Part shown: one piece after another, positions 6,447 through 10,360 of the stretch
Layout: each line of letters opens with the position of its first letter
Position numbering within the stretch: the stretch's first letter is position 1
IMG/VR virus record: IMGVR_UViG_2778261574_000008
Span: 1-32,400 of that record
DNA from: a virus
Taxonomy: Duplodnaviria; Heunggongvirae; Uroviricota; Caudoviricetes
Strand: one strand, 5' to 3'
Length of the DNA: 32,400 bases
Notes under the pieces: generated by a model
Database searches by the model: none
What the model saw: the letters and a program-made list of their open reading frames with translations, nothing else
What the model was told of the DNA's origin: nothing
Program-made: the position numbers and the translations under genes

Positions 6447-6474
6447 ATATAAAAATGCCCTCACATCGGAGGGC
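6447..6474 (-). terminator. tL-like intrinsic terminator between the N-proximal genes and cIII
   Basis: Minus strand reads GCCCTCCGATGTGAGGGC followed by ATTTTTAT. Confidence 0.4.
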
Positions 6475-6569
6475 AAAGAAGATTTCCAATAATCAGAACA
6501 AGTCGGCTCCTGTTTAGTTACGAGCGACATTGCTCCGTGTATTCACTCGTTGGAATGAATACACAGTGC

Positions 6570-6758
6570 TTATTCGTCATGCATTTCAGGTAATTCTTCG
6601 TATTCGACGCCCCATACGAGTTTACACCAACTAACTCGCTCATATCTTTTACAAAAATCAGACCACATGACTTGTGTTCCATCATGGTTTGTTATTACTT
6701 CTGTAATATCACCAACACTAACAAAACTGGTATTAGAAGCAGTTATTTTTACTTTCAT
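6570..6758 (-). CDS. Hypothetical small protein
   Basis: 62-aa ORF; its start overlaps the stop of the upstream 44-aa ORF (TAATG). Confidence 0.4.
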   Translation of the reverse strand: MKVKITASNTSFVSVGDITEVITNHDGTQVMWSDFCKRYERVSWCKLVWGVEYEELPEMHDE

Positions 6759-6892
6759 TACTTATCTCCAAGAGCATTTGCAGCCTCTTTTGCTTTGTGA
6801 ATCCATAGCATAGCCATGTAGTACACAACCTTTTCGTCGGCTCCTGTGATATCTTGCTCTGCCATCCATTTTGTAAATTCAACTGCGTTCAT
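6758..6892 (-). CDS. Hypothetical small protein (44 aa), below the ORF-track cutoff
   Basis: ATG preceded by a GAGGTG Shine-Dalgarno; stop overlaps the downstream start; predicted MNAVEFTKWMAEQDITGADEKVVYYMAMLWIHKAKEAANALGDK. Confidence 0.4.
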   Translation of the reverse strand: MNAVEFTKWMAEQDITGADEKVVYYMAMLWIHKAKEAANALGDK

Positions 6893-6931
6893 ATTCACCT
6901 CTGTTGTTTATGCTAAAAATAAAGGCCACCA

Positions 6932-7183
6932 TCAGGCAGCCTTGTTGTAAATGTTGCAGGTATCAAGTAAGTAATTAGATGGAGCGCCATAAATTATGAA
7001 TTCATCGTTTGTCGGGTCCATCTCCATCTCTTGGCCTATTGCCATTCTTGCGTCAGTGTCATCAGCGGCGAAGCATAAAACAGCCCACGCACCCATTGTT
7101 TTAAAAAGAACTGCAATTGGCTGTGGTTTTACTGAATTTGCGTTAGCGCGAAAATCACAAATCGCACTTTCATGAAATTCCAT
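6932..7183 (-). CDS. Hypothetical early protein immediately downstream of N
   Basis: 83-aa ORF, same strand, 8 nt after the N stop. Confidence 0.45.
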   Translation of the reverse strand: MEFHESAICDFRANANSVKPQPIAVLFKTMGAWAVLCFAADDTDARMAIGQEMEMDPTNDEFIIYGAPSNYLLDTCNIYNKAA

Positions 7184-7191
7184 ATCTCACC

Positions 7192-7491
7192 TCAAATAAG
7201 TGGTTTGCTGCCTAATTTCATTTTCTGGCGACCAACACAAGTCACACCCATTTCACTACGTGGCTTGCTGTAGTAAATACGGTTCTGTTTACTCTCGACT
7301 TCTTCTGCCTTCTTGCAGCGAAGGCTTCCGAGTGATGCTGCTTTGTCTGCTCTGACGCAACCAGAGAGCTTTAGCGCAATTTTTCGCGTCAGTCGCTGCT
7401 CTTGCATTGCCTGTTCACGTTGAGCCTGTCTGCGTGCTCTGCGGCGATTTCTGGCGTTATCGTCAGCCAGATATGTAATGACTACTGTCAT
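7192..7491 (-). CDS. N: N-like transcription antitermination protein (phage 21 / P22 gp24 type)
   Basis: About 100 aa from MTVVITY (GGAGG Shine-Dalgarno 6 nt upstream); N-terminal arginine-rich motif NARNRRRARRQAQREQ; C-terminal two-thirds match my recollection of phage 21 N. The ORF-track N-terminal extension is rejected. Confidence 0.65.
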   Translation of the reverse strand: MTVVITYLADDNARNRRRARRQAQREQAMQEQRLTRKIALKLSGCVRADKAASLGSLRCKKAEEVESKQNRIYYSKPRSEMGVTCVGRQKMKLGSKPLI

Positions 7492-7801
7492 GTTGACCTC
7501 CGATGAAACAACTTTGGAATTGATAGTGATTGCAAAGTGGTTTCTGGCCCCTCGAACTGAGGGGCAGAAAGAGCATCTCGCCACCTAATAGGTCAATGCT
7601 CGGATCGAGAGATTTAATTAACCTCGGTTTTGAAGTTATGCATTCACATAAATCCTCCTGTTGCATGTGCAGCATTGGCTGTGTTTGGCGGCTGCATTTC
7701 GCCTATGGAATTGACTTTGGCGGTGACGCGCCGGGTGCTTATCTTCCGGTTGCCGTCGTGCAGCTGCACTTCACGTCACCCCAAAGCCAACTACTCTTTG
7801 G

Positions 7802-7844
7802 TTCCCGCATTTCGGCGGGACAATCCCATCAATGTTAAAGAGCC
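7802..7844 (-). promoter_or_regulatory. nutL (boxA GCTCTTTAACA plus boxB hairpin UCCCGCCGAAAUGCGGGA)
   Basis: On the minus strand boxA precedes a 6-bp-stem hairpin; the identical boxA and boxB pair recurs at the nutR position after cro. Confidence 0.55.
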
Positions 7845-7884
7845 TGCCAATCTGTTCCGTTTGGCTTCCAGCGTCCTGCTGATG

Positions 7885-7975
7885 GCTTAAATTTAAGATC
7901 TCTTTAATTAATGGTCAAGAGTATTTTTGAAGAAAACTTAAATTTTCTTTCGTAACTTAAGTTTGGCTTTGATTT
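7885..7975 (-). promoter_or_regulatory. pL / OL: leftward early promoter with P22-type operator sites
   Basis: Operator-like inverted repeats of the P22 c2 type (ATTTAAGATCTCTTTAAT at 7891-7908; TAACTTAAGTTT). Candidate minus-strand promoter TTGACC-17 bp-TAAATT overlaps the first operator, about 40 nt upstream of nutL. Confidence 0.45.
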
Positions 7976-7982
7976 TTAAAGG

Positions 7983-8009
7983 AAATAAAAAAAAGGGGCG
8001 AATGCCCCC
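7983..8009 (-). terminator. Intrinsic terminator immediately after c2
   Basis: GC hairpin GGGGC-GAAT-GCCCC followed on the minus strand by an 8-T run, directly after the c2 stop. Confidence 0.5.
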
Positions 8010-8660
8010 TTATGGAAGGTTTGCTAGTTTTGCATCGACAACTACGCCGATGATTTTGCAGTTTCCGTTGATCTCGATCATCGGATATTGTGGGTTAAGT
8101 GGTTTTAGAAACTTCCTGCCTGCATCAATAACTAACTTCTTGAAAGTTGCCTCGTTTTCTCCTTCGAGCTTTGCAACTACCAGTTTCCCGTTACGCGGCT
8201 CTACTTCAGGATCGACGAGTATTATCATTCCTTCAGGGATACTGAGACCGGCCGGAGCCGTCATTGAGTCTCCCTTCACGTCCAACCAAAACGAATCTTC
8301 TGAACAGTCTACGGTTGTATCGTACCAGTTATCTATTGCACGCTTATGATATGGTTCTACAGCTTCCATCCAGCATCCTGCGCTCACCCAGCTAATCAGA
8401 GGGTATGACCCTCTTGGATCATGCCTACTGTGATAGGCAATGTTTGAAAGACTTTCCTCTCCTTTCATCAGATAGTCAGGGGAACACTTCAACGCATTAG
8501 CCAGGGCGAGAAGATTCTCTCCATTTGGCTCTGTCTCAGAGCGTTCCCACTGAGATATGGCAACATTAGACACGCCGACCATCTTTCCAAGTGCGGCCTG
8601 CCTGATCTTGAGTTCTTTTCTCCGAGCGCGAATGCGCTCTCCCATCAATTGAGTTTTCAT
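8010..8660 (-). CDS. c2: Prophage repressor, P22 C2 / lambda CI family (HTH plus S24 LexA-like peptidase domain)
   Basis: 216 aa; near-identical by recollection to P22 C2 (MNTQLMGERIRARRKKLKIRQAALGKMVGVSNVAISQWERSE ...); divergent from cro across an operator region. Confidence 0.9.
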   Translation of the reverse strand: MKTQLMGERIRARRKELKIRQAALGKMVGVSNVAISQWERSETEPNGENLLALANALKCSPDYLMKGEESLSNIAYHSRHDPRGSYPLISWVSAGCWMEAVEPYHKRAIDNWYDTTVDCSEDSFWLDVKGDSMTAPAGLSIPEGMIILVDPEVEPRNGKLVVAKLEGENEATFKKLVIDAGRKFLKPLNPQYPMIEINGNCKIIGVVVDAKLANLP

Positions 8661-8740
8661 AGTTAAGACATCTTAAATAAACTTGACTTAAGATTCCTTT
8701 AGTGGATAATTTAAGTGTTCTTTAATTTCGGAGCGAGTCT
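8661..8740 (+). promoter_or_regulatory. OR / pR (and pRM) region: three P22-type operators and the rightward promoter
   Basis: Three 18-bp A-T-AAG-N4-CTT-A-T type sites (8663-8678, 8685-8702, 8709-8726); pR candidate TTGACT (8683-8688)-17 bp-ATAATT (8706-8711). Confidence 0.6.
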
Positions 8741-8926
8741 ATGTACAAGAAAGATGTTATCGACCACTTCGGAACCCAGCGTGCTGTAGCTAAAGCGTTA
8801 GGCATTAGCGACGCAGCAGTCTCTCAGTGGAAGGAAGTCATCCCAGAGAAAGACGCCTATCGACTGGAAGTCGTTACAGCTGGCGCCCTGAAGTATCAAG
8901 AAAGCGCTTACCGCAAAGCGGCATAA
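8741..8926 (+). CDS. cro: Cro repressor (P22-type)
   Basis: 61-aa HTH protein divergent from c2, directly downstream of pR. Confidence 0.8.
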   Translation: MYKKDVIDHFGTQRAVAKALGISDAAVSQWKEVIPEKDAYRLEVVTAGALKYQESAYRKAA

Positions 8927-8932
8927 GCAAAT

Positions 8933-8977
8933 TGCTCTTTAACAGTCATGGTCCTCATTCCCGCCGAAATGCGGGAA
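8933..8977 (+). promoter_or_regulatory. nutR (boxA TGCTCTTTAACA plus boxB hairpin)
   Basis: boxA at 8933-8944; hairpin TCCCGC-CGAAAT-GCGGGA at 8959-8976, identical to the nutL boxB. Confidence 0.55.
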
Positions 8978-9034
8978 TACAACGCGCATAAGTTGATGCG
9001 CATAACTTCTTATTTGTTAAGGAAATACTTACAT

Positions 9035-9328
9035 ATGGTTCGTGCAAACAAACGCAACGAGGCTCTAAGAATCGAGAGTGCGTTGCTTAACAAAATCGCA
9101 ATGCTTGGAACTGAGAAGACAGCGGAAGCTGTGGGGGTTGATAAGTCGCAGATCAGCAGGTGGAAGAGGGACTGGATTCCAAAGTTCTCAATGCTGCTTG
9201 CTGTTCTTGAATGGGGTGTCGTCGACGACGACATGGCTCGATTGGCACGACAAGTTGCTTCGATTCTCACCAATAAAAAACGCCCGGCGGCAACCGAGCG
9301 TTCTGAACAAATCCAGATGGAATTCTGA
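9035..9328 (+). CDS. c1: CII-like transcriptional activator (P22 C1)
   Basis: 97 aa from [35 protein letters not shown]..., matching my recollection of P22 C1; the ORF-track start at 8948 would run through nutR and is rejected. Confidence 0.8.
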
Positions 9329-9360
9329 GGTCATTACTGGATCAATCCACAGGAGTCATT

Positions 9361-9507
9361 ATGACAAAACAACTCAGTCCTTACCAGGACAAAATTCACA
9401 AACACATACTACGTGATCGCTTCCTGTCCAGCTTCAAGCAGCCTGGTCGATTCCGGGCTGAGTTGGAAAAAGTGAAGCTGATGCAGAAGGAGAAAGGTCA
9501 TGAGTAA
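9361..9507 (+). CDS. Hypothetical small protein (48 aa) between c1 and the replication genes
   Basis: Stop overlaps the ATG of the O-like gene; basic composition. Below the ORF-track cutoff. Confidence 0.35.
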
Positions 9508-10360
9508 TCTTGCAACCGTAACACATTTAAGGCCTTCACAACGGCCTGTGGAGCGTCGTGTGGCAGAAGTTGAAGATGGTTATACCCGTCTTGCAAATGC
9601 CCTGTATGAAGAGCTTATCGGCGCAGATTTAACTAAAAATCAGAGCAAGGTTGCCCACGCCATATGCCGTAAAACATACGGCTACGGTAAAAAGATGGAT
9701 CGCATCTCTGATAGTCAGTTAGCTCAAATTACCAGGCTGCCAAGACAGAAGGTAAACAAGGCCAAGAATGAGCTTATCGCGATGAAGGTTATCCTTCGCG
9801 AAGGCCAGCAAATCGGGCCTAACAAGAACATCGAGGAATGGCAAATCGAAGGGTGTCACTACTCTGGTGATAATGTCACTGCATTGGTGACAAAAAGTGT
9901 CACCAAAACGGTGACAGCGCTGTCACCAAAACAGGGACACACAAAAGAAACTATTACAAAAGAAAAAAGAAATAATAAAAACACTATGTCCGAAAGTGTT
10001 CGGACGGAGTGTGAAAAATCACCTGACCGTCACGAAGAAACCGACAAGGCATTCGAGGAAATATTCTGGTGTGCAGGCATGCGGAAAGCCGGGAAGAAAA
10101 ACGCAGCTTCGGCATTCAGAACACAGTTCAGGGAATGGCGTAAAACTACCAAGGGTACGGCAAGCGAGTTTGCCACGATGCTGGCAGAAGACATCGCATG
10201 CAGGAATGGTAAGCAGTTCGGATTCGACAGGTTGTTACCATCGAGCTACCTGAACGGTCAGCGCTGGAACGACGAAAAGCCAGAAACCATTCAACCACAA
10301 TCCAAACCATCATCCGCAATCACCGTATCGAAAACTGGCTACGTGTTTTTCGACAGGTGA
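9500..10360 (+). CDS. Replication initiation protein, lambda O-like
   Basis: 286 aa at the O position; N-terminal region resembles phage replication protein O; iteron-type origin embedded mid-gene. Confidence 0.65.
9851..10007 (+). repeat. Putative origin of replication inside the O-like gene (iterons plus A/T-rich tract plus palindrome)
   Basis: Repeated GTGTCAC / GGTGACA units at 9851-9933, an A-rich tract at 9934-9985, then inverted repeat GTCCGAA-AGTG-TTCGGAC at 9988-10005. Confidence 0.5.

Follow-up and report, generated by a model that had tools for sequence, protein, structure and literature searches.

Introduction

A lambdoid phage makes its first regulatory decision when it expresses gene N. 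The leader of its transcript, with nutL, an RNase III stem and autoregulation by N, is a textbook system; in lambda, RNase III cleavage of this leader controls N expression. For put antiterminator RNAs, the precedent is set by phages HK022 and HK639. Other leaders carry 5' stabilisers of the Shine-Dalgarno type, or obstacles to RNase E, such as STAB-SD of cryIIIA, the stalled ribosome of ermC and the 5' hairpin of ompA. Here, we describe an element found just upstream of N in a 32,400 nucleotide (nt) stretch of viral DNA (IMG/VR record IMGVR_UViG_2778261574_000008, positions 1 to 32,400; Caudoviricetes). We refer to this whole stretch as the window. It is the early region of a P22/HK620-like lambdoid prophage.

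In the original prediction, a boxA-like string and a perfect hairpin were noted in front of N, in addition to the canonical nutL. They were suggested to be a second site for N or Nus factors, an RNase III processing site, or an RNA structure that controls translation of N. A different description is well supported by our analysis. The hairpin is one helix, H4, of a portable RNA cassette of ~120 nt that is conserved, horizontally shared, N-sense and previously unannotated. Most likely, the cassette is a cis-acting leader module that would bind ribosomes and resist nucleases, a function that we infer from its architecture.

Results

A structured RNA cassette in the N leader

Our first goal was to inspect the hairpin itself. 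All features of the N leader are on the minus strand, and positions are those of the window. On this strand, the order is ...GAGAUGCUCUUUCU, GCCCCUC, AGUUC, GAGGGGC, CAGAAACC... The boxA-like string, TGCTCTTTC, occupies 7575..7567 and is followed by a single T (7566). A palindrome search recovers the hairpin at 7547-7565, with GCCCCUC at 7565..7559, the loop AGUUC at 7558..7554, and GAGGGGC at 7553..7547. Its 3' end is 55 nt from the N start codon (7491). Hence, a boxA-like string and perfect 7 base pair (bp) hairpin are indeed found ~55 nt before N, at 7575..7547. The 7-bp stem is correct as far as it goes, but its length needs correction. It is the upper stem of a helix of ~12 bp, H4 (7541..7570), in which a lower stem (UUUCU 7570..7566 / AGAAA 7545..7541) is separated from the upper by one bulged C (C7546). 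The predicted minimum free energy of H4 is -17.8 kcal/mol (z = -4.26).

By sequence alone, the hairpin and string are within chance. The window has four perfect GC-rich 7-bp hairpins, where ~1.9 are expected, and nine copies of GCTCTTT, where 6.1 are expected. The hairpin is significant because of what comparison reveals: the helix is kept, via compensatory changes, in many independent alleles, and the segment comprising H4 and its neighbour H3 folds with z = -4.2.

The cassette core spans 7540..7659, with limits set by a covariance model. It begins with a strong Shine-Dalgarno sequence, AGGAGG (7659..7654), and an ATG-TGA start-stop (7649..7644); these together form a block at 7644..7659. Next is a 9-codon mini open reading frame (mini-ORF; 7643..7614), ATG CAT AAC TTC AAA ACC GAG GTT AAT TAA, encoding MHNFKTEVN. 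Helix H3 (7571..7601) has an outer stem (GAGCAUU 7601..7595 / GAUGCUC 7577..7571) around a small inner hairpin (CC/GG). H4 follows H3 with a linker of 0 nt. Two further hairpins flank the core. Upstream, H1 (7668..7696) pairs UGCAGC (7696..7691) with GCUGCA (7673..7668) around a variable loop. Downstream, H5 (7505..7544; GAAAC.ACUUUG.AAU / AUU.CAAAGU.GUUUC) ends 3 nt before the N Shine-Dalgarno sequence, GGAGG (7501..7497). The first 4 nt of H5 (GAAA) overlap the lower stem of H4. Hence, the H4 lower stem and H5 are mutually exclusive.

The cassette has many alleles in phages and plasmids

We aligned the leader with those of HK140, HK620, CUS-3 and phage 21. N leaders that are otherwise near-identical differ in whether they have a 204-nt segment (7506..7709), which contains H1, the cassette and H5. 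This segment is carried by the window, HK140 and CUS-3. In HK620 and phage 21, which lack the segment, a long stem (window 7788..7713) runs straight into the N Shine-Dalgarno sequence. Among 50,697 phage records, the segment is only in HK140 (99% identity) and CUS-3 (72%). Similarly, a search of named phages with the P22-type allele was positive for HK140 and CUS-3 only, with no P22-like phage record. In the collection searched, lambda, phage 21, HK620 and the P22-like phages all lack the cassette. The segment is in 163 of 5426 complete E. coli genomes, while 509 genomes have this type of N-leader junction. The cassette has a median of one copy per genome and, at the ~70 loci examined, is always in an N leader.

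The original prediction looked to related phages for conservation, and here the outcome is split. The element is absent from phage 21, HK620 and mEp235, and strongly conserved wherever the 204-nt segment is present.

Two highly different alleles were evident, A (window and HK140) and B (CUS-3), together with A/B recombinants. Between A and B, invariant islands are interleaved with nearly randomised blocks. Allele B is the commonest in E. coli. Further alleles were obtained by pattern scans of viral and metagenome contigs, and by BLAST against plasmids; a pattern scan of one genome per species gave only chance matches, in unrelated phyla. Allele D (H4 loop UUAU) precedes a P22 gp24-type N, with the P22 boxB GCGCUGACAAAGCGC. 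Allele E (UAUAU) precedes a 933W/H-19B-type N, allele F (CAAU, stem CCCCACC/GGUGGGG) a fourth N type (MNRNQRRMAAYNA...), and allele H (ACAUA) an HK620-like N. Allele P (GACAG) is next to hok on MOBH conjugative plasmids of Klebsiella, Citrobacter, Serratia and E. coli. Hence, besides AGUUC, there are at least eight different H4 loops (AAUUC, AUGUC, UAAUU, UUAU, UAUAU, ACAUA, CAAU and GACAG) on essentially the same stem. The N proteins beside cassettes are of four kinds, clearly distinct in their arginine-rich motifs, and each kind has its own cognate boxB sequence. Across cassettes, the mini-ORF has 8-11 codons and H3 begins 12-18 nt after its stop. H5 is present only in alleles A, B, E and H; between A and B, its arms are invariant and its loop is variable. 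By reading, alleles F and P have structural counterparts of H1 with different sequence.

Diverged tandem copies, G1 and G2, occur on ~100 large plasmids of Citrobacter, Klebsiella and Enterobacter. On five of these plasmids, they make up an intergenic unit of their own, ~600 nt long, which is closed by a strong intrinsic terminator and is 6.3 kb downstream of mobI(A/C). In two MOBH plasmid families, the cassette is 6-10 kb downstream of mobI(A/C), inside a long array of co-oriented small genes that include hok and an orphan methyltransferase. No N gene was found near the plasmid cassettes in the regions examined, and Pfam searches with genes neighbouring these copies were uninformative. Judged by gene layout, the mobI-proximal position looks like a leading or establishment region.

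Individual loci show further arrangements. On three MOBH plasmids (L149, positions 1500-1640, L150 and L196), a single cassette copy converges with a toxin locus of the hok/flmC type, whose 3' end is ~220 nt away. In this copy, the 3' strand of H4 (AGGAGGGGC) is followed directly by ATG AAT TGA, another minigene-like arrangement. In prophage L058 (3100-3510, minus strand), the cassette and H5 precede an extra 66-codon ORF (MSSRISNEQKDRL...), and N starts only after this ORF. In L157, which has allele E, the window-type N Shine-Dalgarno sequence and ATG open an ORF of only 28 codons; a 933W-like N begins ~40 nt later, with its own Shine-Dalgarno sequence.

Helices H3 and H4 are supported by covariation

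Base pairs were counted on an alignment of 12 alleles (A3). As controls, pairing partners were slid by 1-3 columns, and 500 shuffles were made. For H3 and H4, 94.8% of cells are paired, compared with 42-54% in the slid controls. Seven pairs are changed on both sides, compared with 1-2 in the slid controls. The observed values were reached by 0 of 500 shuffles. In H3, both-side changes affect three of the seven outer pairs. The H3 pairing GAGCAUC/GAUGCUC becomes GAACAUC/GAUGUUC in alleles E, H and P, and GCCCUAU/AUAGGaGGGC in allele F. The H4 lower stem, UUUCU/AGAAA, is replaced by UUCC/GGAA in allele B (U-A to C-G) and by UUCA/UGAA in allele P (U-A to A-U). Pairs of the H4 upper stem (alignment columns 104-110/116-122) are kept, with changes from G-C to C-G and from C-G to G-C. 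Eight cells contain G.U and one contains A.C. The strand that folds is therefore the N-sense strand.

The covariance model, R1, finds a single copy in the window (134.8 bits, E = 1.9e-31). It also retrieves the second plasmid copy, on which it was not trained (43 bits, E = 4e-8). This copy has no sequence anchor, but it does have its own AAGGAGG-N6-ATG mini-ORF. Note that, in plasmid copy G1, H4 is only 7 bp.

The boxA-like string is a by-product of adjacent helices

The boxA consensus is GYTCTTTAANA and a BoxA within tens of nt of a Shine-Dalgarno sequence can repress translation (PMC5725501). If the element were a second nut-like site, the string would recruit NusB/NusE and the hairpin would serve as boxB, with extra antitermination, or suhB-like repression of N, as the outcome. 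The repression precedent counts in its favour, as does the match of GCTCTTT to the 5' seven positions of the consensus and the retention of GYTCTTT in alleles A, D, E, H and P. Note also that lambda's own functional boxA departs from the consensus. However, GCTCTTTCTGC fits at positions 1-7 only. With A8, A9 and A11 missing, 7 of 10 specified positions match and the 3' half of the consensus (AA.A) is absent. Nor is the string conserved. Allele B has GCTCTTCC, allele F has GGGCTTTCTT, and there is nothing comparable in G1 or G2.

The folding data also argue against a single-stranded boxA. The last five bases of the H3 3' strand (..UGCUC) and first four of the H4 lower stem (UUUC..) make up TGCTCTTTC, so all nine bases are inside helices supported by covariation; transient exposure, during transcription, is possible. 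Hence, the apparent boxA exists because two helix strands lie side by side.

Properties of the hairpin differ from those of boxB. The nut sites of the window are a useful reference and, as originally claimed, share identical elements. The boxA of nutL (7843..7833, minus strand) and that of nutR (8934..8944, plus strand) are both GCTCTTTAACA. Likewise, TCCCGCCGAAATGCGGGAA is common to nutL (7820..7802, minus strand) and nutR (8959..8977, plus strand). The nutL boxB is UCCCGC-CGAAAU-GCGGGA (7820..7803), so the canonical nutL spans 7803..7843; its position is homologous to that of nutL in the HK620 annotation. The nutR boxB hairpin is at 8958..8977 and the whole of nutR is at 8934..8977. In these sites, 12-14 nt separate boxA from boxB, compared with 1 nt between the boxA-like string and the hairpin. 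The cognate boxB is found twice in the window (7805-7818 and 8961-8974). Conversely, the H4 hairpin and whole cassette are found once, with no copy in the pR operon. The H4 loop is unrelated to the boxB loop (CGAAAU) and, with at least eight versions across four N motifs and four boxB sequences, does not track N type. Furthermore, the hairpin occurs on plasmids, with no N in the regions examined. We conclude that the proposal of a second site for N or Nus factors is not supported, and we consider a nut-like role very unlikely. We are similarly doubtful that weak or transient contact with NusB/NusE occurs even in the alleles that keep GYTCTTT.

Ribosome binding is predicted at the start-stop block

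The Shine-Dalgarno and start-stop block, AGGAGGATTTATGTRAAT (AGGAGGAUUUAUGURAAU), is the most conserved part of the cassette and is invariant in alleles A, B, D, E, F, P and G1. The R denotes a G-to-A change, in alleles P, F and G1, that turns TGA into TAA and so retains the stop. The Shine-Dalgarno sequence and start are conserved in all alleles. The mini-ORF behaves differently. Peptides are related in seven alleles, and include MHNFKTEIN, MHNFKSEEK, MHKFKSESK, MRTRNFKSESM and MPTFNFEIN, with synonymous differences between the ORFs (TTC/TTT, ACC/ACT, TCA/TCT/TCC and GAG/GAA). Yet, the number of variable columns at codon positions 1, 2 and 3 is 3, 5 and 5; there is no clear third-position excess and the bias is not significant. 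In allele B, the mini-ORF is dead (ATG to ATA, and an in-frame TGA) while the Shine-Dalgarno and start-stop block survives. Taken together, conservation of the block, the codon result and the dead ORF of allele B make predicted ribosome binding the best-supported feature of the cassette.

These data also bear on a leader-peptide sensor. In such a system, stalling on the mini-ORF (MHNFK[T/S]E..) would remodel the RNA, as in the cat-86, cmlA and erm leaders. The conserved position and length of the mini-ORF are what would be expected, and related peptides arise from different nucleotide contexts by synonymous differences. In addition, K-[T/S]-E is similar to K-T-D and N-A-D, the stall motifs of cat-86 and cmlA. 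However, the ORF is destroyed in a frequent allele and the codon positions lack a third-position excess. Since H3 begins 12-18 nt past the stop, it is out of reach of a ribosome stalled in the ORF. Neither a terminator nor a conserved helix that sequesters the N Shine-Dalgarno sequence is apparent. We regard a sensor of this type as improbable.

A separate stem is the better candidate for RNase III

Cleavage by RNase III, or another endonuclease, in H4 or in coaxially stacked H3 and H4, could free N from its leader. The control of lambda N by RNase III speaks for this. So does the structure, since H4 has 12-13 bp with one bulge and abuts H3; the stacked pair would approach two helical turns. 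Conversely, a typical RNase III stem has ~20 bp, or two turns, of mostly unbroken double-stranded RNA. H4 alone, with 12 bp and one bulge, falls short, and the 7-bp H4 of G1 is shorter still. A far better candidate is a long imperfect stem (GGCUUUGGGGUGACG.../...CGCGUCACCGCCAAAGUC) of ~75 nt, predicted by folding at 7788..7713, between nutL and the cassette. This stem has the required length, is kept in HK620, phage 21 and CUS-3, and occurs in leaders with and without the cassette. By its position, and by what is known of lambda, it is likely the counterpart of the lambda N-leader RNase III stem. Thus, the suggestion that the hairpin is an RNase III site is disfavoured, and we think such a role quite unlikely.

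The long stem has a variant worth recording. In prophage L194 (5970-6110), it encloses a motif resembling a tRNA T-arm (GGTTCGACTCCAG) and ends ..CACCACACCACCA. ARAGORN found no tRNA or transfer-messenger RNA in this interval.

Other identities of the cassette

We considered further explanations. An intrinsic terminator was rejected; the scan finds none here and the sequence after H4 is not U-rich in any allele (CAGAAACC, AAGGAAAC, UAGAGAUG and AUGAAUUG). No promoter was detected within the insert by a promoter scan. Comparison of positions 6500-10000 with Rfam 15, allowing E-values up to 10, gave no match in 7500-7710. A scan for tRNA and transfer-messenger RNA was negative.

A put-like RNA deserves more attention. 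Here, two adjacent stem-loops would bind elongating RNA polymerase, in cis, making it resistant to termination in phage and plasmid operons. Two abutting stem-loops in an early-operon leader fit this idea, for which HK022 and HK639 are the precedent, as does a position at the head of long co-oriented plasmid arrays with no N nearby. However, R1 does not hit the putL region of HK022 and scores no more than 8.4 bits on the pL-nun and pR regions of this phage, with filters off. Sequence resemblance to putL is also lacking. Moreover, the host phages keep full N/nut systems and have a single cassette, with none in the pR operon. Finally, a conserved Shine-Dalgarno sequence and start codon have no place in the put mechanism. 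The cassette is thus extremely unlikely to be a put-like RNA.

An RNA anti-CRISPR was judged against the K-12 type I-E repeat, read from the genome. Alleles A, B, P and F score 7, 8, 9 and 10, respectively. Random GC-rich hairpins reach 9 at the 95th percentile and 10 at the 99th. Hence, scores of the cassette are within background. The flanks of the cassette hairpin are also paired, and are not free handles. Overlapping ORFs of 70 codons (minus strand, 7463..7675), 41 codons (minus strand, 7644..7769; annotated in HK140) and 102 codons (plus strand) were also considered. A coding function for these was rejected, given that three 2-nt indels, together with block substitutions, separate allele A from allele B. 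A helix around the start codon, H2 (GAUUUA/UAAAUC), was discarded since its predicted partners differ between alleles. The prophage anti-small RNAs (AgvB/AsxR) and Pas small RNAs are located near Q and the late genes, outside the N leader. Literature searches on N-leader mini-ORFs, plasmid leading-region RNAs and the peptide motif turned up no earlier description.

Probable movement of the segment between leaders

Filled and empty sites are seen in prophage L155 (4300-5100, minus strand) and L192, which is Cronobacter phage ENT47670. These differ by a 206-nt insertion, bordered by a perfect 14-bp direct repeat, CAAAGCCATTTCAC, and their flanks are otherwise ~98% identical. Most of the segment in the window lies between copies of a 9-bp repeat, TCAATTCCA. 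The empty site that this predicts for allele A, with a single copy of TCAATTCCA, was not found. In seven E. coli prophages, the cassette is joined to a wholly different upstream leader (…CCGGAGTTCAGCACCGGCCATCCAATCGCCAAAGTCAAT…). Hence, the left junction, at CCAAAG, is a recombination boundary.

One interpretation is that the segment is a selfish or relic insertion, either a miniature mobile element or a moron remnant. It would have no role in N expression. Its helices would be kept for spread of the element itself, or for an RNA or peptide product that acts in trans, such as an anti-defence decoy. The presence or absence of the segment, and both direct repeats, would be accounted for. So too would the tandem plasmid copies and the sharing of the cassette by unrelated mobile elements, in early-expressed regions. 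Against this, terminal inverted repeats are lacking and copies are not dispersed; the median is one per genome, invariably in N leaders at the loci examined. The empty site is missing for allele A, and similarity to the K-12 type I-E repeat does not exceed that of random GC-rich hairpins. We consider a selfish or relic origin unlikely. Instead, we read the data as movement of a module between leaders by illegitimate and homologous recombination, and not by an active transposon.

Neighbouring elements of the early region

Gene N (99 codons; 7192..7491, minus strand) has its ATG at 7491..7489 and its stop at 7192. DNA of this region shares 98-99% identity with the annotated N of HK140 and HK620; with CUS-3, overall identity is 91%. 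A promoter scan identifies a pL-like site at 7890..7918 (minus strand; TTGACC, a 17 nt spacer and TAAATT); its homologues in HK620 and phage 21 are annotated as pL. A c2-like repressor gene is at 8660..8010 (minus strand) and cro is at 8741..8926 (plus strand). Directly 3' of the repressor gene (7992-8011, minus strand) is a strong intrinsic terminator, made up of AAGGGGGCATTCGCCCCTTT and then a T run, that corresponds to the tIMM annotated in HK620. A further perfect 7-bp GC-rich hairpin (TGCCCTC, 6-nt loop) is at 6456-6475, downstream of the N operon genes.

Discussion

A possible role for the cassette in early expression

Of the roles first suggested, an RNA structure acting on N comes closest. 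That a conserved, N-sense structure lies just 5' of N is borne out; that it acts on N, in cis, is only the most plausible role. We propose that the cassette works in cis on the early transcript, independently of N and nut. A ribosome would be captured at the conserved Shine-Dalgarno and start-stop block, with the stable helices H1, H3, H4 and H5 next to it. Together, the ribosome and helices would be obstacles to Rho loading and to 5'-end-dependent attack by RNase E. Before this, the long stem upstream may be a site at which the leader is cut. The cassette would thereby set the yield of the first early gene, in the present case N. H5 abuts the N Shine-Dalgarno sequence, and its competition with the H4 lower stem, in alleles A, B, E and H, may provide a link to N translation. 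The mechanism follows from the architecture and from established examples, namely 5' stabilisers of the Shine-Dalgarno type, and ribosomes or hairpins that block RNase E scanning. Taken whole, as a portable cassette with ribosome capture and obstacles, we judge this explanation to be somewhat likelier right than wrong.

Several observations weigh against it. First, the cassettes on plasmids have no closely following ORF, and the tandem copies are in a unit of their own that ends in a terminator; therefore, a role for the downstream gene is not universal. Second, the predicted probability that the N Shine-Dalgarno sequence is unpaired is 0.14-0.27 with the cassette, compared with 0.39-0.50 in HK620. 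The effect could therefore be repressive. Third, an anti-Shine-Dalgarno model was also drawn up, in which AUCUCUCGAU, just past the mini-ORF stop, pairs with AUCGGAGGU at the N Shine-Dalgarno sequence. This was rejected; the pairing is unconserved outside alleles A and E and, specifically, is not conserved in B, D and F. Finally, the peptide is partly conserved (MHNFK[ST]E), a hint that it may have a role of its own; a stabiliser needs no peptide.

In broader terms, the cassette could represent a new family of horizontally exchanged RNA modules, each having a strong Shine-Dalgarno sequence, a start-stop, a mini-ORF and a stacked pair of helices. The family would be specialised for the first transcripts that a mobile element makes in a new cell, where it might act as an early-expression booster or insulator. 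We offer this tentatively, and think it rather doubtful. Such transcripts would include the pL leader in lambdoid phages and, in MOBH plasmids, the presumably leading gene arrays close to mobI. More speculatively, the cassette may be a decoy that occupies an RNA-binding factor of the host, involved in defence or decay.

Implications

A sizeable minority of natural N leaders contain an extra, undescribed, structured module with predicted ribosome binding. The homologues in plasmid regions that are presumed to enter early point to a shared post-transcriptional device for early expression in mobile elements. Since the leaders of HK140 and HK620 differ essentially by the insert, they provide a clean natural experiment. 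Our data also urge caution, as boxA-like strings beside hairpins can arise merely from two abutting helices.

Comparison with known systems

The nut sites of lambdoid phages, including lambda, phage 21 and P22, resemble the cassette in that it is on the pL transcript, 5' of N, and has GCUCUUU and then a GC-rich hairpin with a 5-nt loop. They differ in that the string of the cassette is paired and covarying, with a 1-nt spacer, a loop free to vary, one copy, four N specificities and occurrence on plasmids. Repression of suhB by BoxA and Nus factors (PMC5725501) is brought to mind by a boxA-like sequence that precedes a Shine-Dalgarno sequence by ~65-75 nt. Again, the string of the cassette differs; it has no AA.A half, is unconserved across alleles and is sequestered in helices.

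Like the RNase III stem and N autoregulation of lambda, the cassette is structured RNA between nutL and the N ribosome-binding site, and could set N translation. However, the counterpart of the lambda stem is at 7788..7713, and the cassette is an extra module between that stem and the N Shine-Dalgarno sequence. As with the put RNAs of HK022 and HK639, a lambdoid phage has a pair of adjacent stem-loops in its early leftward leader. Unlike the put RNAs, to which it has no covariance-model similarity, the cassette coexists with N and nut, is present in one copy, and has a translation start inside.

Very short ORFs in leaders, with a strong Shine-Dalgarno sequence of their own, are shared with the cat-86, cmlA and ermC attenuators, and with the lambda bar minigenes. 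The leader ORFs of cat-86 and cmlA have 9 codons, as does the mini-ORF of the window, and bar minigenes are likewise on the pL transcript. In contrast to the attenuators, the cassette has no stem that sequesters the downstream ribosome-binding site, and its ORF is dead in one common allele. The bar minigenes read AUG-AUA-stop, whereas the cassette has AUG, an immediate stop and then a second AUG.

Stabilisers of the Shine-Dalgarno type share with the cassette a strong Shine-Dalgarno sequence that does not serve the main gene, is far upstream in the 5' leader, and has stable hairpins around it. The cassette differs from these in its conserved start-stop and mini-ORF, and in being portable between phages and plasmids.

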